The notes under the pieces were generated by a model, which saw nothing but the letters and a program-made list of their open reading frames with translations, searched no databases and had not been told where the DNA came from. 64,000 bases of DNA from Vicinamibacterales bacterium (GTDB lineage Bacteria; Acidobacteriota; Vicinamibacteria; Vicinamibacterales; UBA2999). A program made the position numbers and the translations under genes. The DNA lies in contig DASYQV010000020.1 in assembly GCA_036005125.1 (NCBI GenBank), forward strand, positions 8,492 through 72,491. Direction: 5' to 3'. Within the stretch, counting starts at the first letter, position 1; the number at the start of each line of letters is the position of its first letter. Shown in pieces: positions 4,487 to 59,832 of this stretch.

Positions 4487-4641
4487 GGGCTTAAGGCTTA
4501 GGGCTTAGGGGGACTTAGGGCGACTTGGCGGCTTCCGGTCGGCGACTTGCGTTTCGGGGTTCCAGTGGGGTCGTGCGTTGCCGATTAGTACCCGGATCCA
4601 CTGAAGTCCTGGCCTAAGCCTTAAGCCCTAAGCCTTAAGCC
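4487..4641. repeat. word-hairpin (word GGCTTAR) between pilB and pilT
   Basis: gggcttaaggcttagggcttagggggacttaggg ... aagtcctggcctaagccttaagccctaagccttaagcc. Inner stems are ggactt/aagtcc and ccagtgg/ccactg. Confidence 0.85.
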
Positions 4642-4673
4642 GACAGCGAAGCCCCAAGCCATCGAGAGTACAG

Positions 4674-5798
4674 ATGACACTGCCCGAACTGCTGAAGAAG
4701 ACCGTCGAGCTGGACGGTTCCGACCTCCACCTGACGACCAATACTCCGCCGCAAGTACGTGTGCACGGTCACCTGCAGCGGCTGGAGGGTGCGGACCTGA
4801 CGCCCGCCGAGACCAAGCAGCTCGCCTACAGCGTGCTGACCGATGCGCAGAAGAAGCGGTTCGAGGAGCACCTCGAGCTCGACTTCTCGTTCGGCCTGAA
4901 AGGGCTGGCGCGCTTCCGCTGCAACATGTTCAACCAGCGCGGCTCCGTGGCAGCGGTGTACCGGCTGATCCCGGAGAAGATCCGCAGCTTCCAGGAGCTG
5001 AACCTGCCGGCGGTGCTGGCAACGCTCGCCGAACGGCCCCGCGGTCTCGTGCTCGTCACCGGGCCGACCGGCAGCGGAAAGTCGACGACGCTTGCCGCGA
5101 TGATCGACAAGATCAACAAGGAGCGGCACGATCACATCCTCACCATCGAGGATCCGATCGAGTTCGTCCATCAGCACCAGAGCTGCCTGGTGAACCAGCG
5201 CGAGGTGCACAGCGACACCGAGACCTTCTCCAACGCGCTGCGCGCTGCGCTCCGCGAGGACCCGGACATCGTCCTGATCGGCGAGATGCGCGATCTCGAA
5301 ACGGTGGAGTCCGCGCTGCGCATCGCGGAGACGGGCCACCTCACATTCGGCACGCTCCACACGAACTCGGCGGCCCAGACGATCAACCGGATCATCGATA
5401 TTTTTCCGGCGCACCAGCAGAGCCAGATCCGGACGCAGCTCTCGCTCGTGCTGGAAGGGATCGTGTGTCAGGCGCTGCTGCCGAAGATCGGCGGCGGCCG
5501 GGTGGTCTCGCTCGAGATCATGATTCCAACCCCCGCGATTCGAAACCTGATCCGCGAGGACAAGATCCATCAGATTTATTCCGCCATGCAGACCGGCCAG
5601 GAGAAGCTCGGAATGCAGACGATGAACCAGTCGCTGGCGACACTGCAGCAGCGGCGTCTGGTGACGCTCGAGACCGCGATCGCCGCGTCCTCGAACCGTG
5701 AAGAGCTGCAGGACTTGATCAACCGCGGCGTCGGCGTCGTTGCCGGTGCGGGGCTGAACCGCCCCGGCATGCACCCGAGGCAGGCGGTAGTACGGTAA
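4674..5798 (+). CDS. pilT: twitching motility (retraction) ATPase PilT
   Basis: 374 aa with Walker A GPTGSGKST and the PilT-specific AIRNLIRE motif. Confidence 0.93.
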   Translation: MTLPELLKKTVELDGSDLHLTTNTPPQVRVHGHLQRLEGADLTPAETKQLAYSVLTDAQKKRFEEHLELDFSFGLKGLARFRCNMFNQRGSVAAVYRLIPEKIRSFQELNLPAVLATLAERPRGLVLVTGPTGSGKSTTLAAMIDKINKERHDHILTIEDPIEFVHQHQSCLVNQREVHSDTETFSNALRAALREDPDIVLIGEMRDLETVESALRIAETGHLTFGTLHTNSAAQTINRIIDIFPAHQQSQIRTQLSLVLEGIVCQALLPKIGGGRVVSLEIMIPTPAIRNLIREDKIHQIYSAMQTGQEKLGMQTMNQSLATLQQRRLVTLETAIAASSNREELQDLINRGVGVVAGAGLNRPGMHPRQAVVR

Positions 5799-5825
5799 CC
5801 GCGAAGCTCGCGTGAGTTGGCATTC

Positions 5826-5880
5826 GTAGGCCGGGTCTTCAGACCCGGCGCACGGCGCCGCATCTGAAGATGCGGCCTAC
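5826..5880. repeat. REP doublet (P-type + Q-type, heads outward)
   Basis: GTAGGCCGGGTCTTCAGACCCGGC-gcacggc-GCCGCATCTGAAGATGCGGCCTAC. It is nested in an outer inverted repeat, cgcgtgagttgg against ccagctcacgtg. Confidence 0.9.
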
Positions 5881-5928
5881 GAAAAGCGCCCTGCGCCAGC
5901 TCACGTGAGCCCTTGATTGGTTCGTAAC

Positions 5929-7146: not shown

Positions 7147-7148
7147 CG

Positions 7149-10982: not shown

Positions 10983-11111
10983 AACGGAGGTTACGGAGGG
11001 CACGGGATCACACAGAGAAACCGAGGAACGGAGACGGGTTCTGAGGCGTTCTTATTCCGTTCCTCCGTTTCTCTGTGTTTGACCGTTCCCTCCGTCCCCT
11101 TGTTGCCTCCC
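10983..11111. repeat. word-hairpin (word ACGGAGG) after pilin 1
   Basis: Left arm is aacggaggttacggagggcacgg...cacagagaaaccgaggaacggag. Right arm is ttccgttcctccgtttctctgtg...ccgttccctccgt. It is followed by aattttt. Confidence 0.8.
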
Positions 11112-11951: not shown

Positions 11952-11981
11952 GGGGCTGGTTCGCACGCGCGGGCCAGCCCC
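11952..11981 (+). terminator. GC-rich hairpin after pilin 2 (terminator candidate)
   Basis: ggggctgg-ttcgcacgcgcggg-ccagcccc followed by ttgtccgtt. The U-tract is weak. Confidence 0.4.
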
Positions 11982-12260
11982 TTGTCCGTTATGCGGGCTC
12001 CCAGCGAGAATTTGTCCCTACTGCAGGGCCGCATGACGGACCGGGCGCGCGAAGCGCGCCAAGAGACACTGCAACAAGGCAAGGGCTCTGACGTGATATC
12101 GAGGTCAGCGCCCGTGCTTGTCCGTTATGCGGGCTCCCAGCGAGAATTTGTCGCTACTGCAGGGCCGCATGACGGACCCGGCGCGCGAAGCGCGCCAAGA
12201 GACGCTGCAACAAGGCAAGGGCTCTGACGTGATATCGAGGTCAGAGCCCTTGACTTGTTG
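11981..12260. repeat. tandem 2 x 136-bp structured repeat
   Basis: Copy 1 spans 11981-12116 and copy 2 spans 12117-12260. They differ by 3 substitutions/indels. Each copy contains a 13-bp stem, a GC hairpin and a terminal hairpin of about 20 bp. Confidence 0.85.
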
Positions 12261-15348: not shown

Positions 15349-15391
15349 ATGATGGGCTGCAGGCTACGGACTCCGGGCTACGGGCGAAGTT

Positions 15392-15473
15392 GTAGGCGCG
15401 GGTCTTCAGACCTGACGTACGTAGGCCGGGTCTTTCGACCCGGCACTGCGCCGCATCTAAAGATGCGGCCTAC
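15392..15473. repeat. REP cluster (degenerate P-type REP plus a full P+Q doublet)
   Basis: gtaggcgcgggtcttcagacctgac, then GTAGGCCGGGTCTTTCGACCCGGC-actgc-GCCGCATCTAAAGATGCGGCCTAC. Confidence 0.85.
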
Positions 15474-15482
15474 GACCCAGGG

Positions 15483-17166: not shown

Positions 17167-18455
17167 TGACGCAGTACGGCTATGCGCTCGTTGGCCTCAC
17201 GGTGCTCGTGGCCGTACTCGTCGGCGTCCTGATGTTTGCCGTACTCCGATTCATGTCGGCCGCACGCGACACCAAACGGCATCTGCGCGACGGCGGCGGC
17301 GGCTCCGAGACGGCGTTCCTGGCTGCGTCGCTTCAGGACGCGATTGCCAGGCTCAAGGCGCAGGAGCGCGCGATGAGCGCGCGTGCGGAGGCTTCGGAGC
17401 GACTGAGCGGGGAGATCGTCTCGAGCCTGACCGCCGGACTGCTCGTTGTCTCGACCGAAGGGCGCGTGCAGATCCTCAACCGCGCCGGCCATCGGCTGCT
17501 GGGACTCCCCGACGGCGTACAGCCGGACAGTTATCGCGAGCTCCTGATGAGCGCCGCGCCGCTGGCGGCAGCGATCGACGAGTGCCTGTTAACTGGCCGG
17601 GCCATCGTGCGGCGGGCCCTGGAGATGCCGCCATCGAGCCGGGCGACGCACTTTGGTGTAACGGTGTCACCACTTGCGAGCGAAGAGGGCGCGCAGCAAG
17701 GCGCGATTTGCCTTTTCTCCGACTTGACGGCGGTTGTCGATCTCGAGGAACAGCTTCGGCTGAAGGATACGCTCGCACGTCTCGGTGAGCTGACGGCCGG
17801 CATCGCCCACGAGTTTCGGAACGGCCTCGCGACGATTCACGGCTACAGCCGGCTCATCGATCTCCAACAGCTGCCCGACGGCTATCGCCCGTACATCGAA
17901 GGTATCCGGCAGGAGACGGAGGCGCTGGGGAAAATCGTGACGAACTTTCTGAACTTCGCCAAGCCCGAACAAGCCGTGCTCCAGCCGGTGGATCTCGGCT
18001 CGATCGTGCAAAGCGCGGCCGAAGACGTCAGTCACGACCTCGTAAGAGGGCGGGCGTTGTCGCTCGAAGGGACCTTTGGCACCGTCCAGGGTGACGATGT
18101 CCTCCTGCGGCAGGTGTTCAGCAATCTGGTGCGCAACGCGGTCGAGGCGTGTGAAGGTGCCGGCGTGGCGCCTCGGGTAACTATTGTTGGCGATGTCGAT
18201 CAGGTCCAGGGACTGGTACGCGTCTCGGTCAACGACAACGGACCCGGGATCGCGGCGGCCGTCGGCGATCGCGTGTTCCGTCCGTTCTTTACGACCAAAG
18301 CGCACGGGACGGGCCTGGGCCTGGCCATCGTCCAGAAAATCGTCGTGACACACAATGGCCGCGTTGCCCTAGGCGCGTCTCCCGAGGGCGGTGCCAGCGT
18401 TCAGGTGACGCTGCCGGTTTACAGGGGCGCCAATCATGTGATTCGCGACTTGTGA
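17166..18455 (+). CDS. sensor histidine kinase (1 TM, PAS, HisKA, HATPase; NtrB/PilS2-like)
   Basis: The ATG at 17166 overlaps the pilD stop. The H-box is AHEFRNGL, with G-boxes NDNGPGI and GTGLGLAIV. Confidence 0.85.
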   Translation: MTQYGYALVGLTVLVAVLVGVLMFAVLRFMSAARDTKRHLRDGGGGSETAFLAASLQDAIARLKAQERAMSARAEASERLSGEIVSSLTAGLLVVSTEGRVQILNRAGHRLLGLPDGVQPDSYRELLMSAAPLAAAIDECLLTGRAIVRRALEMPPSSRATHFGVTVSPLASEEGAQQGAICLFSDLTAVVDLEEQLRLKDTLARLGELTAGIAHEFRNGLATIHGYSRLIDLQQLPDGYRPYIEGIRQETEALGKIVTNFLNFAKPEQAVLQPVDLGSIVQSAAEDVSHDLVRGRALSLEGTFGTVQGDDVLLRQVFSNLVRNAVEACEGAGVAPRVTIVGDVDQVQGLVRVSVNDNGPGIAAAVGDRVFRPFFTTKAHGTGLGLAIVQKIVVTHNGRVALGASPEGGASVQVTLPVYRGANHVIRDL

Positions 18456-18533
18456 TTTGCGATTGAAGCCGCGAATCACCAATCACAAATCACGAATCAA
18501 AATCACAAAATCACAAATCACGAATCGCAAATG
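18431..18533. repeat. word-hairpin (word GATTYGY / ACAAATC)
   Basis: The left arm aatcatgtgattcgcgacttgtgatttgcgattg includes the last 8 kinase codons. The right arm is gaatcaccaatcacaaatcacgaatcaaaatcacaaaatcacaaatcacgaatcgcaaatg. Confidence 0.85.
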
Positions 18534-21592: not shown

Positions 21593-21687
21593 CCATTTGT
21601 GATTTCTGATTTGTGATTGGTGAGCGATGGGTCCAATCACGAATCACAGCTCGAAAGCACAAATCGCAAATCGCACATCGCAAATGG
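21593..21687. repeat. word-hairpin (word GATTTSY / RCAAATC)
   Basis: ccatttgtgatttctgatttgtgattgg - loop - ccaatcacgaatcacagc...cacaaatcgcaaatcgcacatcgcaaatgg. Confidence 0.85.
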
Positions 21688-21688: not shown

Positions 21689-23089
21689 GTGACCTCCTTT
21701 CCCGTTCTCCTCGTCGAAGACAAAGACTCGCTCCGCGCAATGCTGCGGCACGCGCTGGAAGCGCAAGGCCACGCCGTTGTCGAGGCGCGGGATCAAGCGG
21801 AGGCCGTGCAGGCGATCCAGCAGGCGCGGCCGGCTCTCGTGCTGAGCGATCTGCGGCTGCCTTCAGGCGACGGATTCGGGGTGCTCCGGGCGGCCAAAGA
21901 GCTCGATCCCGAGCTCCCTGTCATCGTGATGACCGCCTATGGCAGTATCCAGGACGCGGTGACCGCGATGAAAGAGGGGGCACTCGATTTCCTCGCCAAG
22001 CCGATCGATCCCGACCACCTGCTGCTGATGGTCGCGCGCGCGATCGCGCAGCGCCGGATTCTGACCGAGTACTTCCTCCTGAAAGAGGAGATGGCCGAGC
22101 GCCGCGGCGCACCGCGGATCATTGGCGATGATCCGAAGCTGCGGCAGGTCACGCAGCAGCTTCACCGCGCGGCCGGCAGCGACGCGACGGTGCTCCTCGA
22201 AGGCGAGAGCGGCACCGGCAAGGAGCTCTTCGCGCGCGCGCTGCATGCGCTCAGCCCTCGCGCCGAGGGGCCGTTTGTCGCCATCAACTGCGCGGCAATT
22301 CCGGACACGTTGCTCGAAACGGAGCTCTTCGGCCACGAAAAGGGCGCGTTCACCGGGGCGTCGGTCCGCAAGCCCGGGAAGTTCGAGGTTGCGCACCAGG
22401 GGACGATATTCCTGGACGAAATCGGGGAGATGCCGCTCCCGCTGCAGGCCAAAATCCTGCGCGCGCTCGAGGAGCGGAAATTCGAGCGCGTCGGCGGCAC
22501 GGCGTTGCTTCACGTGGACGTGCGCGTGGTGGCGGCGACCAACCGGAATCTGAAAGCGGGTGTCGCCGCGCGAACGTTCCGCGAGGATCTCTATTTCCGG
22601 CTCTCGGTCTTTCCGATCACGATCCCGCCGCTGCGCGAACGCACGGACGACATCGGCATCCTGACCCGACACTTCATCGAGAAGTTCTGTCGCGATCTGA
22701 ACAAAACGCCGCTGACCCTGTCACCGGAGGCGCTCGATCAGCTCCAGGCGTACCCGTGGCCGGGCAACGTGCGCGAGCTCCAGAACTGCATCGAGCGTGC
22801 CGTGATCCTCGCGGACGCCGACGTCCTCCAGCCGCGGCACCTCAACCTGACGTTTCCCCAGATCCCGTCGGCGCCGGTGCCGCCGTCGAGCCCGTGGGAC
22901 GACGTCGATCTCTCCGGCACGATGTCCGACGCGCTGCGCCGCGTGACCACGGAAGTCGAGCGCCGGAAGATCGCGCAGGCGCTCGCCGCGACCAGCAGCC
23001 GCCAGCGCGCCGCCGAGACGCTGCAGATCACGTTCAAATCGCTCGTCGCCAAGATGAAGGAATACGGACTGGCGTCTGAAGACCAGTAG
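21689..23089 (+). CDS. sigma54-dependent response regulator (NtrC/PilR2-like)
   Basis: The GTG at 21689 ([13 protein letters not shown]...) is preferred, because the longer ORF from 21617 starts inside the hairpin. Domains are REC, an AAA+ domain with GESGTGK and GAFTGA, and a Fis-type HTH. Confidence 0.88.
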
Positions 23090-23212
23090 GCATCAGGTAT
23101 CAGGCATCGGGCATCAGGGCTGTCTGAGGCTTCAGTCGGCATACCTGAACCCTAATGCCTAATGCCTGATCCCTGAGACAGCCCTGATGCCCGATACCCG
23201 ATGCCTGATGCC
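23089..23212. repeat. word-hairpin (word GGCATCA) between convergent genes
   Basis: ggcatcaggtatcaggcatcgggcatcagggctgtctgagg ... cctgagacagccctgatgcccgatacccgatgcctgatgcc. Confidence 0.85.
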
Positions 23213-24330: not shown

Positions 24331-25884
24331 GTGAACGTGCGCGGCGACTTCGTGGTCATCGGCAGCGGCATTGCCGGTCTGCGCGCCGCCGTCTCGCTCG
24401 CTGAGGCCGGCGACGTCATGGTCCTCACGAAGGCCGATCCTGCTGAAAGCAACACGGGTTACGCGCAAGGCGGCATTGCGGCCGCCATAGGTCCGGACGA
24501 CTCGCCGGAGCTGCACGCGCGCGACACGGTCAAGGCCGGCGACGGCCTCTGCGATCCCGAGGCGGTCGACGTGCTCGTGCACAACGGCGCGCGCTACGTG
24601 CACGAGCTGCTCGAGTGGGGCGCCGCCTTCGACCGCGACGCGGACGGGCGGCCCGCGCTCGGACGCGAGGGCGCCCACAGCGTGCGGCGCGTGCTGCACG
24701 CCCGCGATGCGACCGGACGCGAGATCGCCCGCGTGCTGTGGGCTCGCGTCGCCCCGAATCCGCGCATCCGCGTGCTCGATGGCACGCTCGGCACGGACCT
24801 CATCGTGCGCGACGGCGTGTGTGTGGGTGCCGAGTACGTCGATCAGGCGGGGGGCCGGCACCTCGTCAACGCGCGCGCGACGCTCCTGGCAACGGGCGGC
24901 GCAGGACAGGTCTTCCGCGAGACGACAAACCCCGCAATTGCGACGGGCGATGGTGTCGCGATGGCGTTCAGGGCCGGCGCCCGCGTGACCGATCTCGAGT
25001 TCGTCCAGTTCCATCCAACGGTGATGAACGTCGCCGGGGCGCCGCGCTTTCTGCTGTCCGAAGCGCTGCGGGGCGAGGGCGCGCGGCTCGTGAACGCGGC
25101 GGGCGAGCGCTTCGTGCAGCGGTACGAGCCCGCGGGTGATCTGGCGTCGCGCGACCTGGTCTCGCGCGCGATGGTGCGCGAGGCCGAGCGGACAGGCGCT
25201 CCGGTCTACCTCACGATGGCGCATCTCGACCCGGCGTTCGTGCGCGAGCGATTTCCGACCATCGCTCAGGTGTGCCGGAATGCGGGGCTGGACCTGGCCA
25301 CCGACCGCATCCCGGTCAGTCCCGCGGCGCATTACGTGATGGGTGGCGTCGAGACCGACCTCGATGGACGGACGTCGCTCGCGGGACTCTTCGCCGCGGG
25401 CGAGGTCGCGTGCACCGGCGTCCATGGAGCGAACCGGCTCGCAAGCAATTCGCTGCTCGAAGGATTGGTCTTCGGTGCGCGGGCCGCGGAGGCAATGGTT
25501 GGCGGTCCAGAGGAGCCTGCCACACGGCACATCGAGTGCGTTGTGAGCGTCGAGGCCCCACACGGCCACGACGGCGTGATCCCCTCCGTGTCCGAGGTGC
25601 GTGATCTCATGTGGAAGAATGTAGGATTGCTGCGCTCGCGCGCCGGCCTGGAGTCCGCCGTCGCCCGGCTGGCCGGCTGGTGGACGGCCATCGATCGGCG
25701 TGCGCCGGCCATGCCGGAGGACCTCGAATTCAGGCGCCTCACCAGCATCGTCACGGTTGGTTCTCTCATCGCGCACGCCGCGCTGCGGCGCGAGGAGAGT
25801 CGCGGCGGCCACTTTCGATCGGATTTCCCCGAGCACGACGATCTACACTGGAAACGACACGTCTCGGATCGGCTTAAGGCTTAA
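24331..25884 (+). CDS. nadB: L-aspartate oxidase
   Basis: GTG start. The FAD motif is VVIGSGIAGL, plus fumarate reductase/succinate dehydrogenase flavoprotein-like domains. 517 aa. Confidence 0.9.
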   Translation: MNVRGDFVVIGSGIAGLRAAVSLAEAGDVMVLTKADPAESNTGYAQGGIAAAIGPDDSPELHARDTVKAGDGLCDPEAVDVLVHNGARYVHELLEWGAAFDRDADGRPALGREGAHSVRRVLHARDATGREIARVLWARVAPNPRIRVLDGTLGTDLIVRDGVCVGAEYVDQAGGRHLVNARATLLATGGAGQVFRETTNPAIATGDGVAMAFRAGARVTDLEFVQFHPTVMNVAGAPRFLLSEALRGEGARLVNAAGERFVQRYEPAGDLASRDLVSRAMVREAERTGAPVYLTMAHLDPAFVRERFPTIAQVCRNAGLDLATDRIPVSPAAHYVMGGVETDLDGRTSLAGLFAAGEVACTGVHGANRLASNSLLEGLVFGARAAEAMVGGPEEPATRHIECVVSVEAPHGHDGVIPSVSEVRDLMWKNVGLLRSRAGLESAVARLAGWWTAIDRRAPAMPEDLEFRRLTSIVTVGSLIAHAALRREESRGGHFRSDFPEHDDLHWKRHVSDRLKA

Positions 25885-25938
25885 GTCTCAGGGCGTAAGG
25901 GGCTCAGGACTCAAGCCTCTCGAAGCCTTAACTAAGCC
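25871..25938. repeat. word-hairpin (word GGCTTAA)
   Basis: ggcttaaggcttaagtctcaggg ... cctctcgaagccttaactaagcc. The left arm supplies the last nadB codons (RLKA-stop). Confidence 0.7.
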
Positions 25939-25944: not shown

Positions 25945-27405
25945 ATGTCCAAAGAAACTGAAATTCCAGATCTGCCAACTGAGATCACTCCGCAGTCGCA
26001 GGACTTCGGCCGCTGGTATATCGATGTCGTCCGGCGCGCTGAGCTCGCAGACTACTCGCCGGTCAAAGGCTGCATGGTCATCCGCCCGTACGGCTACGCG
26101 ATCTGGGAGTTGATGCAGCAGGGGCTCGATCGCCGTTTCAAGGCGACCGGTCATGTGAACGCGTACTTCCCCCTGTTCATCCCCGAGAGCCTGTTGATGA
26201 AAGAGGCCGACCACGTCAAAGGGTTCGCGCCGCAGGTCGCGTGGGTCACCCGCGGAGGCACCGAGGATCTCGAGGAGCGCCTCGTCGTCCGGCCGACGTC
26301 GGAGACGATCATCGGGACGATGTACGCCAAGTGGGTCCAGTCGTGGCGCGATCTGCCGATTCTCATCAATCAGTGGGCGAACGTCGTGCGGTGGGAGAAG
26401 GTGACGCGGCTGTTTCTGCGCACGACCGAGTTCCTCTGGCAGGAGGGACACACCGCACACGAGACGGCAGAGGAAGCGCAGGAGGAGACGCTGCGGATGC
26501 TCGGCGTCTACAAGGACTTCGCGCAAACCGATCTCGCCATGCCCGTGATCGACGGCCAGAAGACGGAGAGCGAGAAGTTCGCCGGCGCCGAGCGCACCTA
26601 TTCCATCGAGGCGTTGATGCGCGATGGCCGGGCGCTCCAGACGGGAACCTCGCACAATCTCGGGCAGAACTTCGCGAAGGTGTTCGACATCACATTCCAG
26701 GCTCGCGACAAGTCCGTGCAGTACGTGCACGGCACGTCGTGGGGCGTGTCCACCCGGATGATTGGCGGCGTCATCATGACGCACGGAGACGAGGGAGGGC
26801 TGATCCTGCCGCCGGGGGTCGCGCCGTATCAAGTCGTCATCGTGCCGATCCCGCGTGGGAATTGGAAGGAGACCGTCCTACCGAAGGCGCACGCGATCCG
26901 CGACAGCCTGACCGCCCGCGGTATCCGCGTGATGGTCGACGACCGCGACACGCAGACGCCCGGCTGGAAGTTCAACGAGTGGGAGCTGCGCGGCGTGCCG
27001 CTGCGCCTCGAGATCGGCCCGAAAGACATCGAGAAGTCTCAGGTCGTGCTGGCGCGCCGCGATACGCGCGAGAAGTCGTTCGCGGCGATGGACGGGCTCG
27101 CGGGCAGCGTGGAGGAGATGTTGAAGGCCATCCAGCAGGCGCTCTTCGAGCGTGCGCTGAAGTTCCGCGAGGAGCACACGTCCTCGACCGACTCGTACGA
27201 CGAGTTCAAGGAGATCATGGACGGTCGTCCCGGCTTCGTCGTGTCGCCCTGGTGCGGCTCGGCGGAGTGCGAGGCGCAAATCAAGGCGGAGACGCAGGCG
27301 ACGATCCGGAACATTCCCTTCAACAGCCAGAAGCCGGTCGGCAAACAGTGCATCAAGTGCGGCGGGCCGGCGGTGTCGACCGCCTGGTTTGCGAAAGCGT
27401 ACTGA
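25945..27405 (+). CDS. proS: prolyl-tRNA synthetase (short archaeal/eukaryote-like type, no INS editing domain)
   Basis: 486 aa with a class II core, an anticodon-binding domain and a C-terminal zinc-binding-like domain (CIKCG). Confidence 0.92.
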   Translation: MSKETEIPDLPTEITPQSQDFGRWYIDVVRRAELADYSPVKGCMVIRPYGYAIWELMQQGLDRRFKATGHVNAYFPLFIPESLLMKEADHVKGFAPQVAWVTRGGTEDLEERLVVRPTSETIIGTMYAKWVQSWRDLPILINQWANVVRWEKVTRLFLRTTEFLWQEGHTAHETAEEAQEETLRMLGVYKDFAQTDLAMPVIDGQKTESEKFAGAERTYSIEALMRDGRALQTGTSHNLGQNFAKVFDITFQARDKSVQYVHGTSWGVSTRMIGGVIMTHGDEGGLILPPGVAPYQVVIVPIPRGNWKETVLPKAHAIRDSLTARGIRVMVDDRDTQTPGWKFNEWELRGVPLRLEIGPKDIEKSQVVLARRDTREKSFAAMDGLAGSVEEMLKAIQQALFERALKFREEHTSSTDSYDEFKEIMDGRPGFVVSPWCGSAECEAQIKAETQATIRNIPFNSQKPVGKQCIKCGGPAVSTAWFAKAY

Positions 27406-27488
27406 AAGTGGAAAGTTGAAAAGTGGAAAGTAAAAAGTAACTGGAAAGTGCCCTACTTTCCACTTTGCACTTTCCACCTTTTACTTTG
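27404..27488. repeat. word-hairpin (word GGAAAGT) between convergent genes
   Basis: gaaagtggaaagttgaaaagtggaaagtaaaaagtaactggaaagtg-ccc-tactttccactttgcactttccaccttttactttg. Confidence 0.85.
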
Positions 27489-38792: not shown

Positions 38793-38905
38793 GGGGTCAG
38801 ACCGAGGTCAGAACGGGGTCAGAACGGGGTCAGAACGGGGTCTGACCCTGGTGATGAGTCGACTCAAGGCATTGAGTCGAGTCGACTGAGGGTTTGAGTC
38901 GATCG
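38793..38905. repeat. tandem 11-mer array (GGGGTCAGAAC) plus GAGTCGA palindromic words
   Basis: ggggtcagaccgaggtcagaacggggtcagaacggggtcagaacggggtctgaccc, then tgagtcgactcaaggcattgagtcgagtcgactgagggtttgagtcgatcg. Confidence 0.85.
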
Positions 38906-38925: not shown

Positions 38926-40467
38926 ATGTCGATGTTCCGAAAAATCCTCAAGGTGGCGGCGTTCGGCATCGCCGCGCTGTTCATCGCGATAGCCGTTACA
39001 GGCGTGCTCTATCTGTTCTTCGGCCTCCGAGTCGAGCTCGATGGCGGCGGTAGGCCCCATCTCATGTTCGTCGAATCGGCAGCATCTCGCGCCGCGACCA
39101 TCGCCCACCATCGTGAGGCCCAGCGAGCACAGTTCAGCGCGGCCAGTTCGCCGCAGGCAGCGGAGCCCGAGCCGGTACCGCCTCCCGCCGACCAGGCGCC
39201 CCCACCGGAAAGCGACGAGCCTGCGCCCAAGCGGACCGTATCCGCCAGGCCAAGGCCGTACTGGACCGACTTCCGCGGCCCGAGCCGGGATGGCCACTAC
39301 CGCGAACGTCCCGTGCGCACGGATTGGCCGGCGGGCGGGCTCACACCGCTCTGGAAGCAACCCATTGGAGCCGGCTACGCGTCGTTTGTCGTCGCGCGCG
39401 GGCGCGCGTTTACCATCGAGCAGCGCGGATCCGACGAGGTGGTCGCCGCCTACGACGTTCCAACGGGCCGCGAGCTCTGGACCAACTCGTGGCGCGCGAC
39501 TTTCAGCGAAACGCTGGGCGGCGATGGCCCGCGCGCCACGCCCACCTGGGCCGACGGCCGTGTCTACGCGCTCGGCGGACAGGGCGAATTGCGCTGCCTC
39601 GACGAAGCCGACGGCCGCGTCGTGTGGCGCACCAACATCCTCGAGGAGAACGGCGCCACGAATCTGCAGTGGGGCATGGCAGCTTCGCCGCTCGTCGTCG
39701 ACGACACGCTCATCCTCTTGCCGGGCGGACCCAACGGCCGCTCGGTGGTTGCCTACGACCGGCGCACCGGAAGCATCGCGTGGTCGGCGCTTGGCGATCA
39801 ACAGGCCTACTCCTCGCCGATGCTGGTCACGCTGGCGGGCGTACGCCAGCTGCTCGTCTTCAGCAGCTCGCGCCTGATGGGCCTCACGCCCGACCGCGGC
39901 GAGCTCCTCTGGGAATATTCATGGACGACCCAGTTCGGCGTCCATGCCGGCCAGCCGCTGGTCCTGGGAGACAACCGGGTGTTCCTGTCTTCCGGCTATG
40001 GGACCGGCGCAGCAGTCATCGAGCTCACACCGGAGGGGAATCGCTTCTCGGTGCGCGAGGTCTGGCGCAACAACCGGATGAAGAATCAGTTCACGAGCTC
40101 GGTGCTGCACGAGGGCTTCATCTACGGGCTCGACGAGTCAATCCTGGCGTGTCTCGACGCGAACACGGGCGAGCTCAAATGGAAGGGAGGACGATACGGA
40201 TACGGCCAGGCGCTGCTCGCGGACGGTCACCTGATCGTCCTCACCGAGGACGGCGACCTCGCCCTGGTCCGCGCGACGCCGGAGCGCCATCAGGAAATCA
40301 CCCGCTTCAAGGTGTTGAGCGGGAAGACCTGGAACCACCCGGCCATGGCCGATGGCTATCTCTGGGTGCGAAACGGGTCCGAGATGGCGGCGTTCGATCT
40401 GCGGACGGCCGCCACGAAGGCCACGAGGGAATTAGCCACGAAGGATACGAAGACCACTAAAAATTAG
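38926..40467 (+). CDS. membrane-anchored PQQ-like beta-propeller (BamB-like repeat) protein
   Basis: N-terminal TM segment and a Pro-rich linker, then repeated ...G.L.ALD..TG...W... blades. The last 18 codons lie inside a repeat arm. Confidence 0.7.
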   Translation: MSMFRKILKVAAFGIAALFIAIAVTGVLYLFFGLRVELDGGGRPHLMFVESAASRAATIAHHREAQRAQFSAASSPQAAEPEPVPPPADQAPPPESDEPAPKRTVSARPRPYWTDFRGPSRDGHYRERPVRTDWPAGGLTPLWKQPIGAGYASFVVARGRAFTIEQRGSDEVVAAYDVPTGRELWTNSWRATFSETLGGDGPRATPTWADGRVYALGGQGELRCLDEADGRVVWRTNILEENGATNLQWGMAASPLVVDDTLILLPGGPNGRSVVAYDRRTGSIAWSALGDQQAYSSPMLVTLAGVRQLLVFSSSRLMGLTPDRGELLWEYSWTTQFGVHAGQPLVLGDNRVFLSSGYGTGAAVIELTPEGNRFSVREVWRNNRMKNQFTSSVLHEGFIYGLDESILACLDANTGELKWKGGRYGYGQALLADGHLIVLTEDGDLALVRATPERHQEITRFKVLSGKTWNHPAMADGYLWVRNGSEMAAFDLRTAATKATRELATKDTKTTKN

Positions 40468-40560
40468 CCACGAAGGGACACGAAGGTCACGAAGGATTCT
40501 CTGGGTTTTCTTCGTGGCCTTCGTGAGCTTCGTGGCTTATTTCGTCGTGGCCTTCGTGGC
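40411..40560. repeat. word-hairpin (9-mer word nnCACGAAG)
   Basis: gccacgaaggccacgagg...gccacgaaggatacgaag...gccacgaagggacacgaaggtcacgaagg - loop - tcttcgtggccttcgtgagcttcgtggc...cgtcgtggccttcgtggc. Confidence 0.85.
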
Positions 40561-44904: not shown

Positions 44905-44915
44905 CGGTGTTGTAT

Positions 44916-45047
44916 GTAGGCCGGCTCTTTAGAGCCGGCGCAGTGGACCGCATCTGACGATGCGGCCTACGTACGATAGATGCGGCGGGTTTCGCCGAGC
45001 CGCATCTGAAGATGCGGCCTACGTACGTAGATGCGGCCTACGTACGT
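44916..45047. repeat. REP cluster (variant P-type plus three Q-type units)
   Basis: GTAGGCCGGCTCTTTAGAGCCGGC..CCGCATCTGACGATGCGGCCTAC..CCGCATCTGAAGATGCGGCCTACgtacgtAGATGCGGCCTACgtacgta. It overlaps the last codons of the DHH gene. Confidence 0.85.
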
Positions 45048-46033
45048 AAAGGTGCCGCCTTGTCGATCTGCTCGATGATCTTCCGGCGGAAGAGCGCCGT
45101 CAGCTCGTCGAACGTGCCCTGTGCCGAGCAGCCGGCGGCGTTCTTGTGGCCGCCGCCGCCGAACTCCGCTGCCACGCTGTTGATGTCGACCGCGCCCTTG
45201 GACCGCATGCTGATGCGCCATTCGTCAGGACCCAGCTCTTTGAAGAAGACGACGGCCTGGATCTCCTTCACCGTCAGCGGCAGGTTGATCAACCCCTCGG
45301 TGTCCTCGTAGGTGCCCCCGCAGTCACGAGCGAGCGCCCGGTCCACCCAGACGGTCGCGAGGCGGCCGGTCGGGTCCAGCTCCATCTTGCTGAGCACCGC
45401 TCCAAACAGCTTCAGGCGGCCGAGATTGTTGCTGTCGAAAATGCTCCGCGCTACCGCGGGCGGATCCACGCCCGCCTCGACGCACTGACGGCAGATGTCG
45501 AACGTACGCGACGAGATGCTCGAATAGTGGAACGATCCGGTGTCGGTCAGGATGGCAATGTAGATGTGCGTCGCGATCTCGGGCGTCAGTCGGACGCCGA
45601 GCGCCTGGGTCAGATCGAACACCATCTCGCCGCACGCCGCAGCCGACAGGTCGAACCAGTTCACCGCGCCGTACATCGTGTTGCCGACGTGGTGATCGAT
45701 GTTGATCACGAACCCGCGATCCAGGCCGGCCACGCCGGTCCTGGCGAAATCGCCGCACTCCATGATGATGACCGCGTCGCCCGGATCGTCGACGCGCTCC
45801 GCCACTTCGATCTCTGACACACCGGGAAACACCAGCATGGGGAATGGCGGCACGTCGCTGTTGACGACGCGAACGGTCTTGCCGAGCTGACGAAGCGCGA
45901 ACGCCATGGCGAGCTGCGAGCCGATGGCATCGCCGTCGGGCCGGACGTGGGACGAGATGACGAAGCGACGGCGCTGTCGAATCTCCTCCGTGATGCGGTC
46001 ACGAACGGACGTATCACTCGTGGTCGTCGTCAT
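45038..46033 (-). CDS. DHH/DHHA1 phosphoesterase (NrnA-like bifunctional oligoribonuclease/pAp phosphatase)
   Basis: The ATG at 46033 gives MTTTTSDTSV.... Motifs are SHVRPDGDAIGS, NIDHHVGN and GGGGHKNAAG. Confidence 0.8.
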   Translation of the reverse strand: MTTTTSDTSVRDRITEEIRQRRRFVISSHVRPDGDAIGSQLAMAFALRQLGKTVRVVNSDVPPFPMLVFPGVSEIEVAERVDDPGDAVIIMECGDFARTGVAGLDRGFVINIDHHVGNTMYGAVNWFDLSAAACGEMVFDLTQALGVRLTPEIATHIYIAILTDTGSFHYSSISSRTFDICRQCVEAGVDPPAVARSIFDSNNLGRLKLFGAVLSKMELDPTGRLATVWVDRALARDCGGTYEDTEGLINLPLTVKEIQAVVFFKELGPDEWRISMRSKGAVDINSVAAEFGGGGHKNAAGCSAQGTFDELTALFRRKIIEQIDKAAPLRT

Positions 46034-46401: not shown

Positions 46402-46479
46402 CTAACGAGGCCCTGCCTGAGACCGAGCATGTGGTGTGTCGAGCCCGCTGCCCCTCGGTCTGAGGCAGGGCCTCGTTAG
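46402..46479. repeat. 26-bp inverted repeat (25/26 match) with 26-nt loop, 4 nt upstream of rbfA ATG
   Basis: ctaacgaggccctgcctgagaccgag (46402-46427) pairs with ctcggtctgaggcagggcctcgttag (46454-46479). Confidence 0.9.
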
Positions 46480-46484: not shown

Positions 46485-46575
46485 GTGTTGCTTTGCCCCG
46501 CTCCGCGGGGCGAGGCGTTGCTTTGCCCCGCTCCGGGGGGCGAGGCGTTGCTTTGCCCCGCTCCGCGGGGCGAGG
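46485..46575. repeat. 3 x 30-bp tandem repeat, each unit a 7-bp GC hairpin
   Basis: The unit gcgttgctttgccccgctccgcggggcgag repeats with period 30 (starts 46487, 46517, 46547). The hairpin is gccccgc-tcc-gcggggc. Confidence 0.9.
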
Positions 46576-46658
46576 CGCCTCGACAGGCCCGCTGAAAACA
46601 TGACTCATGTGTATGAGTCCCGGCCTGTCAAGGCGTCTGGGCGGTCCGGTCGCGCGCG

Positions 46659-46944: not shown

Positions 46945-47060
46945 CCATTTGTGGTTTGCGATTTGCGCTTTGTGATTGATCCGGCCGGATCCAAATCACA
47001 AACCGCCAATCACCAATCACAAACCAATCGCCAATCACAAATCGCAAAAATCACGAATGG
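46945..47060. repeat. word-hairpin (word GRTTTGY / RCAAAYC)
   Basis: ccatttgtggtttgcgatttgcgctttgtgattgatccgg | ccggatccaaatcacaaaccgccaatcaccaatcacaaaccaatcgccaatcacaaatcgcaaaaatcacgaatgg. Confidence 0.85.
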
Positions 47061-51322: not shown

Positions 51323-51415
51323 ATTCATGATTCTTGATTCATGATTGCTGACGTTGATTCTGGTGTCCTTTCTGCAATCAAGAATCAAGAATCATGAATC
51401 ATGAATCAAGAATCC
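51323..51415. repeat. word-hairpin (word GATTCWT / AWGAATC)
   Basis: attcatgattcttgattcatgattg ... aatcaagaatcaagaatcatgaatcatgaatcaagaatcc. It shares the 24-nt string attcatgattcttgattcatgatt with 58406-58429. Confidence 0.85.
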
Positions 51416-51901: not shown

Positions 51902-51931
51902 ACAAACAAAAAAAGTGGGCATGAGCCCACT
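51902..51931 (-). terminator. canonical intrinsic terminator after rimO
   Basis: The minus strand reads AGTGGGC-tcat-GCCCACT followed by TTTTTTTGTTTG. The U-tract ends about 5 nt before the rimP ATG. Confidence 0.65.
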
Positions 51932-51982
51932 CTGGGGTCTTACTCCATCTAGGCGACTCTCAAATTTATCACACGCCAGCGG

Positions 51983-53344: not shown

Positions 53345-53468
53345 CTGCGATTCGTGATTGGTGATTTGTGATTGGATTGTGATTTGTGATTGGTGATTCG
53401 TGATTCCAATTCGTGATCGAACCTGAACAAAAATCGCAAATCGCCAATCGCAAAATCACAAATCCCGA

Positions 53469-53474
<6 letters not shown>
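53345..53474. repeat. word-hairpin (word GATTNGT / ACNAATC)
   Basis: ctgcgattcgtgattggtgatttgtgattggattgtgatttgtgattggtgattcgtgattccaattcgtgatcg - loop - aatcgcaaatcgccaatcgcaaaatcacaaatcccgatcacgg. Confidence 0.85.
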
Positions 53475-56779: not shown

Positions 56780-56790
56780 GGTTTTCGGAG

Positions 56791-56878
56791 GTCGCATCTT
56801 TAGATGCGGCGCGCGCCGGGTCTAAACCCGGATTCATCACGAATCAAGGAATTGAGGGTCTACGAGACCCGGCCTACG
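56791..56878. repeat. REP cluster with an embedded GATTCAT-type word
   Basis: gtcGCATCTTTAGATGCggc-gcgcg-CCGGGTCTAAACCCGG-attcatcacgaatcaaggaattga-GGGTCTACGAGACCCGGCCTAC. Confidence 0.8.
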
Positions 56879-57830
56879 TACTCATCGGCGCGACCGCCAG
56901 CCCGTGGCGGATGCTTTCTTTCGGTTCGAGATCGCCCGTTGGAACGCGAATCGTGAGATCGGACCAGTCGGTGCCCGATGGAATCCGCACCCCATCCGCC
57001 ACGACGCAGCGCTCCACGCGGGCGCCTGCGCCAACAGCTACATCGTCCCACAGAACCGTATCGGTGAGCCGCGCCGATGACTCGACGCGCGTGCCTCGGC
57101 CCGCCGAAACTGACGGCCGTCCTTCGCGCGCGGCGAGCCGCAGCGACGTCTGCAGGTAGTCAGCCGGCGTGCCGATGTCGAGGAACTCAGCCGTCTCCGA
57201 GATGAACGCGCGAATGGAGCCCGGCCGACTACGAATCAACTCGGGATACAACGTGCGGACCGACTCGTGCGGCGTGTGATCCGGCAGCGATTCGAACGCG
57301 GTGCTCTGTGCCACCTGAACACCGATGAAGTGATACGACCGCTCGCCGGCCCCGCGGCGCGTAAAGGCGGTTACCGCGCCATTGCCGTCGACGAGCGCCC
57401 CGCCGTACTTGTCCGGTTCCGTATTCGGCACGAGCGCCATGGTGACGAGAGCGCCCGACGCCCGATGCGCTTCGAGCACCTCGGCGACGTTGACATCGGT
57501 GAGCGTGTCCCCGTTCACGATGAGGAACTCGCCGGACCCCAGCAGCGGCAGCGCGTGCCGCGGACCACCGGCCGATCCGAGCACCGGTGTCTCCCATGAG
57601 TATCGGACGCGGACACCAAGTCCGGCGCCGTCGCCGATGAGTCCGGTGATCGTTTCGGGAAGATGGTGCAGATTGAGCACGAACTCTTCGACGCCTGCCG
57701 CGGCAAGCCAGCGCAGGATCCGCTCGACGAGCGGCTCGCCGGCAACCGGCAGGGCAGCTTTGGCGCGAACGCGTGAAAGCGGTCGGAGCCGCGTGGCAAG
57801 ACCGGCGGTCAGCACGAGCGCGGGGATCAT
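56874..57830 (-). CDS. sugar-phosphate nucleotidyltransferase with C-terminal left-handed beta-helix
   Basis: N-terminal motif LTAGLATRLRPLS (as in G-x-G-T-R-L-x-P-L-T NTP transferases) and C-terminal hexapeptide-like repeats. The ATG overlaps the CYTH stop (ATGA). Confidence 0.72.
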   Translation of the reverse strand: MIPALVLTAGLATRLRPLSRVRAKAALPVAGEPLVERILRWLAAAGVEEFVLNLHHLPETITGLIGDGAGLGVRVRYSWETPVLGSAGGPRHALPLLGSGEFLIVNGDTLTDVNVAEVLEAHRASGALVTMALVPNTEPDKYGGALVDGNGAVTAFTRRGAGERSYHFIGVQVAQSTAFESLPDHTPHESVRTLYPELIRSRPGSIRAFISETAEFLDIGTPADYLQTSLRLAAREGRPSVSAGRGTRVESSARLTDTVLWDDVAVGAGARVERCVVADGVRIPSGTDWSDLTIRVPTGDLEPKESIRHGLAVAPMST

Positions 57831-58384
57831 TCAGCGTCGAAGAGCATGTCGTTTGCGGTGAGGCCGTTCCGTTCCCGGTGCGCGATGAAGAGCCCGCGGT
57901 AGGAATCGAGGATGAAATCTGCGGGCAACCGTCCGAGCGCCTGCGTCATGCTGAGAATGCCGCGCTCGCCCCCTTCGATCTCGACATAGGTGCCAAGCGG
58001 TGTCTCGTCGAGCGCGATCGTCACCTCCTCGGCCGCGTATTCCTCTCGATATTTCTCGTATCGGAACCACACGTGCAGCCCGAGCTCCTGCAGGACGCGG
58101 AGCAGCACGGTGCCATCGGCCACGATCGTTTCGTACTCCTCGCGCAGCTTCATGCTCGACGGCTGGACCGGCCCCTTGAACGTGAGCAGGCTCTTCCCCG
58201 ATTCGATCCGCACGCGCAGCACGCAGCGGCGGCGGCGCAGCAGCTCGTCCTCGGTATCGAGCAGCGCGTCCTCCTGCAGACGACGGCTGCGGAGCGGCGT
58301 GGCGCCCGCGGCCAGAATCGCCCGCCGGGCCTCGTCGGGACTGTCGAACCGGAGCTTGACTTCGCGCTCGAGCATCAGCGCCAT
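57827..58384 (-). CDS. CYTH-domain protein (class IV adenylate cyclase / triphosphate tunnel metalloenzyme)
   Basis: The ATG at 58384 gives MALMLEREVKLRF with the ExExK signature. It is about 185 aa. Longer ORF starts lie in the upstream hairpin. Confidence 0.72.
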   Translation of the reverse strand: MALMLEREVKLRFDSPDEARRAILAAGATPLRSRRLQEDALLDTEDELLRRRRCVLRVRIESGKSLLTFKGPVQPSSMKLREEYETIVADGTVLLRVLQELGLHVWFRYEKYREEYAAEEVTIALDETPLGTYVEIEGGERGILSMTQALGRLPADFILDSYRGLFIAHRERNGLTANDMLFDAE

Positions 58385-58402
58385 TTCGGCCTCCGCGGCC
58401 TT

Positions 58403-58495
58403 GTGATTCATGATTCTTGATTCATGATTCACGATTTCGCGGTGACGGCGAGGCAGCCCAATCCAGAATCATGAATCCTGAATCATGAATGAATT
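58403..58495. repeat. word-hairpin (word GATTCWT / AWGAATC)
   Basis: gtgattcatgattcttgattcatgattcacgatt - loop - aatccagaatcatgaatcctgaatcatgaatgaatt. Confidence 0.85.
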
Positions 58496-58510
58496 GCGGG
58501 GGCATGGCAA

Positions 58511-59689
58511 TCACGTTAACCGGGATGGTCCCGACAACCCTCGAAGCGGGGCGCCCTGGACCTGCTTGCCGAACACCAGAACCTTGTGCGTGCTGCCAAG
58601 GCCGCCGGGCAGGATCAGCGTCTTGAGCGCCAACCTGCGGCGAGTGGCGGCAACCGACGACCCGACCGTCGCCAGCTCGTCGGCCAGACCGAGCGCCAGC
58701 AGAAAGTAGCCCTGGTCGAGCACGCCGAGCGTCGTGCACCCGAATTGCTCTGCAGCGCGTTGCACCGATGTGAGGTCCACGTGCGACGTGATGTCGCGCG
58801 TGCCAGGCTCTTCGAGCCATGCTGGTCCCTCCGCGGATGGATTGGCCACATGGCGCGCGAACGTCGTCAACGTGCCGCCTGCGTGCGTGGCGGAGTAGAT
58901 CTCCTCGGCAGCGTGACCGTAGTCGACGAGCAGCAGAAAGCCTCGATGAAGAGCGCGGCACGCGCGAGCCGTCCATGCGAGAGCCGCCAGGTTGATCTCC
59001 GCGCGCCATCCAGGCCGCAGGGCCACGTTCGCTGCGCGAAGGTATTCCTCGAGCGCCTGCGTCGACGGCTGACCGACGCGTTCGACGAGTCGATCGCCGT
59101 CCAGATCGACGTAGTGCTCGCGCAGACCGTGCCCGGTCATCACGACGCTGTGGACCGGCAGCGCGTCGAGCAACTCGTTGGCGTAGATGACGCCGTGGAC
59201 GGCATCGGGAAGTGTCACGCCGGAGCTTGCGACCTTCGCCGCGTGCGGTGCGAGCATCTCCTGCTGTGCGGCGCGCGCAACCGGACTGGCATCCACCAGA
59301 TGAAGGCGAATGGCCGAGTAGAACTCCGGATCCGTCGCGCGAGCCGCGTCGAGCACGTCGCGCGCCAGCTGGCCGTTGGAGGCACCCGCCTCGACGAGAT
59401 CGATGCCCTCTCCGCTCAGGACAGCCGTCCCGTCGGGCTCGAGCCGCCGCCACATTTCCGCGAACTGTCTCGCGAGCATCGCGCCGAAGGCGGGCCCGAC
59501 GTCGACGCTGGTGAAGAAATCGCCGTTGCGCCCGGTGCGCCGCGCGGCGCGCGCGTAGTAGCCGTGCTCGGGATGATAGAGCGCGATCGACATGAACTCG
59601 GCCACCGTGAGGGGACCGCGTTCACGGATGCGCTGGACGATCAGATCTCGGGCGGTCACGAAAGAAAGAGGTGCGGCGGGAGGCTCCAT
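58511..59689 (-). CDS. class I SAM-dependent methyltransferase, MidA/DUF185 (NDUFAF7-like) family
   Basis: 392 aa containing ...HPEHGYYA...GDFFTS...LVEAGASNGQLARD...ANELLDALP.... Confidence 0.75.
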   Translation of the reverse strand: MEPPAAPLSFVTARDLIVQRIRERGPLTVAEFMSIALYHPEHGYYARAARRTGRNGDFFTSVDVGPAFGAMLARQFAEMWRRLEPDGTAVLSGEGIDLVEAGASNGQLARDVLDAARATDPEFYSAIRLHLVDASPVARAAQQEMLAPHAAKVASSGVTLPDAVHGVIYANELLDALPVHSVVMTGHGLREHYVDLDGDRLVERVGQPSTQALEEYLRAANVALRPGWRAEINLAALAWTARACRALHRGFLLLVDYGHAAEEIYSATHAGGTLTTFARHVANPSAEGPAWLEEPGTRDITSHVDLTSVQRAAEQFGCTTLGVLDQGYFLLALGLADELATVGSSVAATRRRLALKTLILPGGLGSTHKVLVFGKQVQGAPLRGLSGPSRLT

Positions 59690-59832
59690 TTGATCATCGG
59701 GCTATATCAGATTTGATCATCGATTGGTTCATCGCCACAGTTGATCAGCGGCGATTTGATCAGCGATCGATGACTCAATCGTCAGATGATCAGATTCAAT
59801 GATCAAATCTGCTATAGCCGATGTTCAAATGT
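59687..59832. repeat. TGATCA-rich inverted repeat element
   Basis: The terminal inverted repeat of about 37 nt is catttgatcatcgggctatatcagatttgatcat against atgatcaaatctgctatagccgatgttcaaatg. Six TGATCA hexamers lie within 146 bp. Confidence 0.85.

Follow-up and report, generated by a model that had tools for sequence, protein, structure and literature searches.

Among the simple repeats of bacteria, tandem arrays of heptamers hold a special place: according to Mrazek et al. (2007), whose account is relayed by PMC4679880 and PMC4692102, no long simple repeat is more abundant in most genomes, and the unit length is there tentatively put down to the length of DNA that contacts the polymerase, with slippage as the process. 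The closest described system is that of Xanthomonas, in which Rehm et al. (2015; PMC4692102) found about 185 arrays of a GGGAATC-type heptamer in each of two genomes (X. campestris and X. axonopodis), with unit positions 1-4 and 6 conserved and 70-75 convergent inverted pairs of arrays per genome. About 90% of these arrays are intergenic, in most cases with co-directional or convergent genes on either side; their mean distance from the upstream open reading frame (ORF) is 28 nt, and they often overlap its end, differ in length and presence between the two species, and were read as G-quadruplex motifs, assembled transcripts starting or stopping at quadruplex-capable repeats more often than at control repeats (PMC4692102). 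Here we describe a 64-kb chromosomal segment of a Vicinamibacterales bacterium (Acidobacteriota; contig DASYQV010000020.1; about 65% G+C), hereafter the window, in which long hairpins built from short tandem words fill many of the spacers that follow genes. We hold with moderate confidence that these elements are palindromic heptamer microsatellites, living as passengers at gene 3' ends much as repetitive extragenic palindromic (REP) sequences do.

An element of this kind consists of a 5' arm of TGATTNN or GGCTNNN units, a loop, and a 3' arm of complementary units, and belongs, as an acidobacterial variant with several families, to a repeat type that is known though unexplained. A first-pass annotation of the window, made from the letters alone, had supposed that no such element class had been described; this was wrong, since inverted heptamer pairs at stop codons had been described from Xanthomonas (PMC4692102), although beyond that paper our literature search found no account for Acidobacteria and no named class of word-array hairpins. 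The two systems are alike in the conserved core with free positions, in the convergent pairs, in the overlap with stop codons and in the variability between species. They differ in that Xanthomonas, a member of another phylum, uses one G-rich word, whereas at least two core families and additional singletons occur here, at a higher density (about one element per 3.5 kb) and with a TGATT family that has no quadruplex capacity. Strain-level indels of single units and the juxtaposition of stop and start codons are documented here and not for Xanthomonas. The repeats surveyed by Mrazek et al., with units of 5-11 nt, resemble ours as tandem heptamers that are commonest, intergenic and ascribed to polymerase slippage; they are direct arrays, for which pairing with a complement and anchoring at stop codons are not described in the relayed account.

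The long word hairpins in the spacers are real. Each of the 17 spans cited in the first-pass annotation was folded with RNA parameters against 200 dinucleotide shuffles, and 15 of them gave z scores of -3.3 to -12.4 with none of the 200 shuffles folding equally well. Tandem arrays were called with Tandem Repeats Finder (TRF), which reports period-7 arrays at 16 of the 17 loci, with a period of 9 at 10983 and 40411 and of 11 at 38793; the units run head to tail, as in any microsatellite, in 2.9-10.4 copies per arm. Clean two-arm word hairpins are present at about 12 loci. A strict detector, requiring an array and an array of the reverse-complement unit no more than 150 nt away, finds 10 loci in the window against three in about 2.2 Mb of other loci, a count that excludes five contigs of the window's own strain, and paired period-7 arrays are about 100-fold denser in the window than in those 2.2 Mb. 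This detector misses L090, L166 and L167 (L-numbers label fetched loci or contigs from other genomes), where the TRF consensus units differ by more than one base. When the reverse complement of each array is instead aligned directly to its flanks, 22 arrays have a reverse-complement partner, compared with 2 in a control in which the array is only reversed. By manual count, some 33 spacers with a length of 40 nt or more lie behind the 3' end of a gene; a word element is found in 17-18 of them and a REP doublet in six, and the three divergent spacers of the window contain neither. The hairpins are not assembly artefacts, because the same structures recur in independent assemblies: the one between pilB and pilT is the same bar one base in five assemblies of one strain, and the one behind the pilin gene (10983) was found in two assemblies of the same strain. 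Rfam at the gathering threshold gave 0 matches in the 64 kb.

The microsatellite nature of the elements is most evident from a comparison with close relatives, which comprise loci of the same species (L176-L179; HEAT protein 99% identical) and of sister species (L168 and L171, RimP 93%; L173, NadB 91%; L166 and L167, HEAT protein 85% and 83%). In the sister species TGATT hairpins stand at the same seven junctions (rimP-nusA, asnS-miaB, methyltransferase-CYTH, infB-DUF503, tatC-HEAT, the end of ctpA and the spacer before an NtrC-like gene), with unit variants, copy numbers and loops that differ; the comparison of orthologous spacers, suggested by the first-pass annotation, thus finds the architecture kept while the units change. 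L168 and L171, which are nearly identical, are exactly one TGATTCA unit apart in the 5' arm at rimP-nusA, where L169 is like L171, and one AATCAAG unit apart in the 3' arm at asnS-miaB. At tatC-HEAT, L177 and L178 differ from the window, L176 and L179 by one CAAATCG unit and a few substitutions. Near-identical strains are therefore polymorphic for whole-unit copy number at three loci, which is microsatellite behaviour, and because they differ by a single unit in one arm, slippage is still at work and each arm changes independently of the other. In L167 a perfect (GATTTGT)x5 in one arm is not mirrored by the other. A hairpin survives such indels because a periodic arm can pair with its complement in whatever register.

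These data bear on the recurrent process that had been proposed for the origin of the hairpins. Slippage is upheld by the one-unit, one-arm strain differences at three loci. Hairpin-templated symmetrisation of the arms is not, given that arm copy numbers are unequal (about 4 vs 8.4 units at 18431-18533, 10.4 vs 4.7 at 53345-53474), that the indels between strains concern one arm only, and that most TGATT hairpins fold no better than versions of themselves in which the 7-nt units of one arm are shuffled; the exceptions have unique inner stems, and these confound that test. A unit-by-unit matching of the arms, whether by inverted duplication or by compensatory selection, was rejected on the same result, unit shuffling leaving most TGATT folds no worse. 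The outer stem is the most regular part, the outer halves of the arms being more periodic than the inner ones (0.66 vs 0.50; 24 vs 7 arms; p = 3e-4).

More distant Vicinamibacterales have spacers of 2-40 nt without a hairpin at the same junctions, which makes the elements additions confined to one clade of genus rank. Once gained, an element stays in place, and its arms gain and lose whole 7-nt units independently by slipped-strand mispairing. Sites may also change family. The proS/HEAT junction has a GGAAAGT hairpin in the window, (GATTCTT)x4 in L173 and a mini hairpin, cGATTCgtgaGAATCg, in L166, and in L167 the two stop codons overlap without any spacer. The spacer upstream of a methyltransferase gene holds three different hairpins in three genomes, those of L171 and L168 being two different GGCT-core ones.

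The nadB-proS junction is the site that tells most about origin. The conserved C-terminus of NadB, ...DRL, is encoded by GAT CGG CTN, and both the GGCTTAA array of the window and the GGGCTCG array of L173 and L174 begin in the same native Arg-Leu codons. L175 (87%) has no hairpin at this junction; the sequence there is GATCGGCTAAGCC, with a 9-nt mini-palindrome, GGCTAAGCC, made up of the half-units that stand outermost in the two arms. AAGCC and 6-7 nt before the proS ATG are kept in the window, L173, L174 and L175. To judge from these sequences, the nadB-proS element seems to have grown where it stands, out of a native palindrome. In L088 (965-1111) the nadB-proS spacer carries a purine-rich direct array resembling Shine-Dalgarno sequences (CAGGAGA/TCAGGAGG) without a complementary arm. 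Sporadic word hairpins are found in other lineages: L002 (CAACTCC), L030 (GGAATCC), L151 (an 8-mer), L061 (a Chitinophaga), L090 (a 9-mer at the same nadB-proS junction) and L136 (GTGTCAG directly after proS). Their occurrence makes the architecture a general though rare outcome that has been strongly amplified in this clade. The contig of L168 starts inside a word hairpin (1-60), and most contigs of the closest relatives (L166, L167, L169, L170 and L172 among them) are only 1-2.6 kb long; word hairpins may fragment short-read assemblies of this clade.

The words fall into few families. In a census of the window and its close relatives, which together represent this clade of genus rank, a (T)GATT core was counted in 42 and a GGCT core in 18 of the 73 period-7 arrays (together the two cores cover 60). 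The others are for the most part short coding repeats rich in GC, or else belong to two singleton hairpins, GGCATCA and GGAAAGT. The claim that the word is specific to its locus does not survive this census, and the view that only the architecture is common to the different classes was overstated. GATTNGT and GATTCWT arrays, formerly listed as separate classes, both consist of units of the form GATT-[C/T/G]-N-[mostly T] at 7-nt spacing, and since one arm in L168 contains both GATTCTT and GATTTGT units, they are one (T)GATT family; GGCTTAR, GCTCGGG and GGGCTAC arrays have the GGCT core in common. The 24-mer reported from both 51323 and 58406 is present.

All 17 elements are anchored at the end of the upstream gene, from an overlap of 57 nt to a distance of 15 nt after its stop codon; eight begin no more than 2 nt from the stop and five overlap the end of the ORF by 6-57 nt. 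The stop triplet often lies inside the first unit, for instance in pilB, infB and proS (TGAAAGT GGAAAGT), and ORFs end inside arrays in the HEAT protein gene (27453-27490, minus strand), nadB (25871-25884), a histidine kinase gene (18431-18455) and a BamB-like gene (40411-40467). nadB terminates in the second GGCTTAA unit, and in L173 it reads through four GGGCTCG units. Six co-directional junctions (to the NtrC-like gene, proS, the HEAT gene, DUF503, the miaB-like gene and nusA) have the next start codon at a distance of 0-12 nt from the stem's 3' base, and with the stop codon on the other side the stem therefore juxtaposes stop and start. In a mechanical ORF list the NtrC-like gene, nusA, DUF503 and the methyltransferase gene were given starts that reach too far, into 3' arms. 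The elements have a uniform chirality, with a G/T-rich 5' arm in which G is at least as frequent as C at 16 of 16 two-arm loci.

The TGATT-core elements are placed as follows. At 18431-18533 (z -3.7) the histidine kinase ORF terminates at a TGA within the 5' arm. The hairpin at 21593-21687 (z -3.4; ortholog in L173) fills the whole spacer between a TAG stop ending at 21592 and the probable GTG start of the NtrC-like gene at about 21689. Others lie directly after the ctpA stop (31508-31592; GATTCTT; z -3.3; ortholog in L173), between the infB stop and the DUF503 start (46945-47060; z -3.8), between rimP and nusA within the conserved operon (51323-51415; z -5.8), in the spacer, filled by the element, between an asnS-like gene for a class II aminoacyl-tRNA synthetase and a miaB-like gene (53345-53474; z -6.3), and between the methyltransferase and CYTH genes (58403-58495; z -5.5; orthologs in L168 and L171). 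The TGA of infB belongs to the first unit (cg-TGATT) of an element whose ortholog in L168 is built of different units. In the tatC-HEAT spacer (28441-28515) one arm has decayed and no hairpin is formed (z +1.3), which agrees with its earlier description as a one-arm array; both arms are present in L166, L167 and L173.

GGCT-core hairpins fill the pilB-pilT spacer (4487-4641; GGGCTTA/TAAGCCC; called by TRF; z -5.0), where the first unit includes the TAA stop of pilB (TAA-GGGC TTAAGGC), follow directly on the smc stop (35632-35755; GGGCTCG; z -7.0) and, as a weak GGCTTAA hairpin, separate nadB and proS (25871-25938; z -1.75). A one-arm GGGCTAC array of 4.6 units on the plus strand (15354-15385; TRF), beside a REP doublet, is an extra partial array that the earlier list did not contain. 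Of the singletons, the GGCATCA hairpin (23089-23212; z -12.4) separates the convergent NtrC-like gene and aroB and is absent from L173, which has a 16-nt spacer with diverged flanks, and from more distant relatives; the GGAAAGT hairpin (27404-27488; z -6.0) separates the convergent proS and HEAT-repeat genes, one of its arms coding for about 12 C-terminal residues that the HEAT protein has in excess of its homologues. A hairpin of the 9-mer CACGAAGGN (40411-40560; z -11.9) lies between convergent genes for a BamB-like protein and a cupredoxin, its 5' arm within the ORF, whose reading frame a period of 9 preserves.

Three further spans correspond in part to what had been claimed for them. The long hairpin after the pilin gene (10983-11111; z -7.5) stands; of the word there are only 2-3 ACGGAGG(N2) units, at the outer stem of a mostly unique and weakly periodic palindrome. 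At 38793-38905 (z -4.2) the 11-mer array is present (GGGGTCAGAAC x4.5), followed by a separate palindromic 22-mer array in place of a complementary word arm. Upstream of the methyltransferase gene (59687-59832; z -9.9) there is indeed a long hairpin, with TGATCA and GATT motifs that are irregularly spaced and not in tandem, and TRF calls no array in this span.

The host genes are ordinary housekeeping genes: pilBTC-pilSR with pilin genes, aroB, nadB, proS, tatAC, ctpA, smc and a rimP-nusA-infB-DUF503-rbfA-nrnA-truB-rpsO-pnp cluster, in an order that is kept across the Vicinamibacterales. The ProRS of the window is 89% identical to that of a metagenome-assembled genome of this order, and the following matches come from the same order. 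Elements are present even within a conserved operon, between rimP and nusA and after infB.

How such an element would arise and persist can be outlined as follows. A short palindrome at a stop codon, either native, as GGCTAAGCC may have been at nadB-proS, or delivered by another route, would seed two complementary microsatellites, each as prone to slippage as any array, and slipped-strand mispairing would then change the units of each arm. Stalling of the polymerase at the stem base might add further units until coding or initiation signals halt the growth, and the preference for 7 nt could be the general slippage bias of bacteria proposed by Mrazek et al., as far as the relayed account goes. 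Triplet-repeat expansion, in which self-pairing repeats favour slipped intermediates, offers an analogy only, drawn from eukaryotic and viral systems. The elements may be tolerated because the insert would loop out and keep the ancestral geometry of stop and start at the stem base, and because most words hold TGA, TAA or TAG, a triplet that a 7-nt period presents in all three frames. A terminating ribosome would unwind the stem base and expose the adjacent start, so that downstream translation may be coupled to that of the upstream gene; the ribosome shunt of cauliflower mosaic virus and translational coupling are analogies only, to a stem base that brings a stop and a downstream start together. 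RNA stems of 25-55 bp would be expected to block 3' exonucleases as REPs do, and are plausible substrates of RNase III.

Because of the slippage-driven turnover of units and the likeness to the Xanthomonas repeats, REP-like passengers appear to us the most likely explanation, rather than new machinery. Several points weigh against it. The GATT and GGCT cores, with 42 and 18 of the 73 arrays, are far more frequent than random local seeds would be; a conserved core of 4-5 nt with 2-3 free positions suggests constraint or dispersal; and all members have one chirality. The different families at the proS/HEAT and pre-methyltransferase sites are more easily accounted for by new insertion than by growth in place, and no GGCATCA seed is visible in L173. 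As far as its sequence tells, L175 could have lost the nadB-proS hairpin by precise deletion. The comparison of outer with inner periodicity depends partly on how the spans were delimited, and everything said above on function is inferred. Growth in place thus leaves the dominance of the cores, the chirality and the replacement of families unexplained, and dispersal or a factor that reads the core are live alternatives.

Dispersal would mean that two or more families of tiny mobile palindromes, similar to REPs or to MITEs (miniature transposable elements with inverted repeats) and mobilised in trans by a transposase of RAYT/HUH or other type, insert at stop codons and undergo slippage later. 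We regard this as rather unlikely, although it would account for the two dominant cores and the uniform chirality, for the gain of elements into tiny spacers and for sister lineages that hold different families at one site. It is also favoured by a nearly identical mini hairpin, GATTC-GTGA(T)-GAATC, at unrelated sites, namely proS/HEAT in L166 and a REP at 56798-56873 of the window, and by a true REP family in the same niche that varies in presence between the window and L168/L171. Conserved termini, conserved interiors and target-site duplications are, by contrast, not seen, the loops are unrelated, neither the 64 kb nor the related contigs examined contain a transposase or RAYT gene, and the first unit at nadB-proS is native coding sequence.

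REPs, BIMEs and REPINs likewise occupy the 3' spacers of co-directional and convergent genes, next to stop codons, form hairpins, and are abundant and lineage-specific. REPs and REPINs keep a family sequence, whereas the word elements share only a core of 4-5 nt and differ in loops and units; moreover, a GTAG-type 5' tetranucleotide and a short GC stem are characteristic of REPs, which are not tandem and show no unit indels, all of which sets them apart from the word elements. MITEs such as Correia, ERIC and RUP are similarly small, non-coding and intergenic, with inverted repeats that fold. Their terminal inverted repeats and their interior are conserved and they bring target-site duplications, and nothing of this was seen here: at the junctions inspected by eye there was no target-site duplication and no common terminus, and loops and flanks are unrelated. 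A single MITE family was rejected on these grounds, and in this respect the first-pass annotation judged the elements correctly.

The true REP family of the window makes the difference clear. Six other post-gene spacers (5823-5883, 15400-15475, 36700-36765, 44912-45048, 56790-56880 and 61465-61525) contain doublets of GCCGGGTCTnnAGACCCGGC and GCCGCATCTnnAGATGCGGC with GTAGG/CCTAC ends, amounting to 12 matches with 0-2 mismatches against a chance expectation of 0.05-0.13. In the nusA-infB and in the NTP-transferase-APH spacer the doublet is present in only one of the window and L168/L171. The REP doublets show what a mobile family that keeps its sequence looks like in this genome, and the word hairpins behave otherwise. 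At 56798-56873 the REP hairpin of a doublet is interrupted by a mini TGATT hairpin, TTGATTCGTGATGAATCC, that nearly matches cGATTCgtgaGAATCg at the proS/HEAT junction of L166 and may represent a proto-element or else what an insertion has left behind. In L173 the divergent aroB/nadB spacer, 23 nt long in the window, carries a 131-nt insert with GC-rich REP-like hairpins (3676-3806); REP-type elements can therefore enter divergent spacers too.

Alternatively, cores in strict 7-nt phase and of uniform chirality could be the footprint of a dedicated trans-acting system, either an array-extending enzyme or a single-strand-binding protein that reads the phase, an idea that we consider improbable. 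If an enzyme were involved, a HUH/RAYT-like nuclease or a specialised polymerase would seed and extend palindromic arrays at stop codons, and the arrays would be selfish DNA that is 'growing' and not 'jumping'. If a binding protein were involved, the arrays would gate hairpin formation, operon-wide translational coupling and mRNA decay. Either would constitute a new functional class, and might explain the heptamer arrays of Xanthomonas and cyanobacteria as well.

Closely allied, and in our opinion just as doubtful, is the explanation by selected cis-regulatory elements of RNA or single-stranded DNA, in which a protein reads the core in 7-nt phase and thereby gates the hairpin or tunes termination, decay or coupling. 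The conserved core of 4-5 nt with free positions at strict 7-nt spacing, the chirality and the location at stop codons would suit such elements. Proteins that read in this period are known: HutP recognises triplets at a 7-nt period. Cold-shock-domain, OB-fold or HutP-like proteins would be the candidates, their binding to the 5' arm deciding whether the hairpin forms, a role to which we give an equally low probability. For CspB, as cited in PMC4679880, one protein is said to bind each heptamer unit, with a preference for T-rich sequence. Tuned regulation fits poorly with elements whose copy number, variants and very presence vary among sister strains and species, and several unrelated words with one architecture, next to housekeeping genes of every kind, are likewise difficult to reconcile with it.

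A main role as terminators without a U-tract, or as structures assisting Rho at gene ends, is very unlikely. Stable stems directly 3' of stop codons, between both co-directional and convergent genes, would invite this interpretation, which was also among those offered in the first-pass annotation, and the transcript ends at quadruplex-capable repeats of Xanthomonas (PMC4692102) point in the same direction. The elements lack U-tracts, however: no T-run follows the 3' arms, and terminator-like matches (9 and 12) do not exceed those in shuffled sequence (10.5 and 11.7), for which reason intrinsic terminators were rejected. The organism does use U-tract terminators, because a canonical hairpin with a T-run, a terminator or attenuator, lies just upstream of rimP (51912-51933, minus strand) and is kept in L168 and L171. 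Finally, elements sit inside the conserved rimP-nusA-infB operon and several abut the next start codon, neither of which suits termination as the main function.

G-quadruplexes or other non-B DNA, as proposed for GGGAATC in Xanthomonas, are extremely improbable, since the G-rich 5' arms have GGG runs only in some GGCT-core units, the dominant TGATTNN family has no G-runs at all, and the complementary arm gives a far more stable duplex.

Some narrower candidates were also discarded. As Shine-Dalgarno-like words the 5' arms are unremarkable, their duplex with the 3' tail of 16S rRNA (-8.1 kcal/mol) being matched by random 40-mers (-8.3 kcal/mol). As GANTC methylation sites they fail because only about half of the TGATT units contain GANTC. 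Integron attC sites were rejected for their context, the flanks being syntenic housekeeping genes (proS, smc, infB, nusA); RYYYAAC/GTTRRRY cores were not noticed on reading the element sequences, a reading that did not include a dedicated pattern search.

The window contains a few other repeats. The DUF503-rbfA spacer, 28 nt long in L168, is occupied here by an almost perfect 26-nt inverted repeat and by three 30-mers in tandem (GTTGCTTTGCCCCGCTCCGCGGGGCGAGGC), every one of them a GC hairpin (46402-46479 and 46487-46577); these repeats are of a different type from the word hairpins. A 136-bp unit, tandemly duplicated with 95% identity, lies at 11981-12258 between the second pilin gene and a VKOR-DsbA gene. 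ARAGORN reports a 99-nt tRNA-Val(CAC) inside the nadB coding region (24678-24776, minus strand), which is probably a false positive.

What our observations mean for this group of bacteria is, first, that self-pairing microsatellites can occupy about half of the spacers behind the genes of a genome, essential operons included, and the looping-out that keeps stop and start adjacent, together with words that carry stops in three frames, suggests how this is tolerated. Translational coupling, RNase III processing and slippage at the stem bases are testable predictions of this explanation. On the practical side, the elements inflate ORF calls and produce C-terminal extensions, as in the HEAT-repeat protein and nadB. 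Combining several word families with strains set apart by single units and with sites that have or lack an element, the clade is a dense natural experiment, and its main value lies in offering a tractable system for understanding why heptamer arrays exist and how palindromic microsatellites persist in operons.

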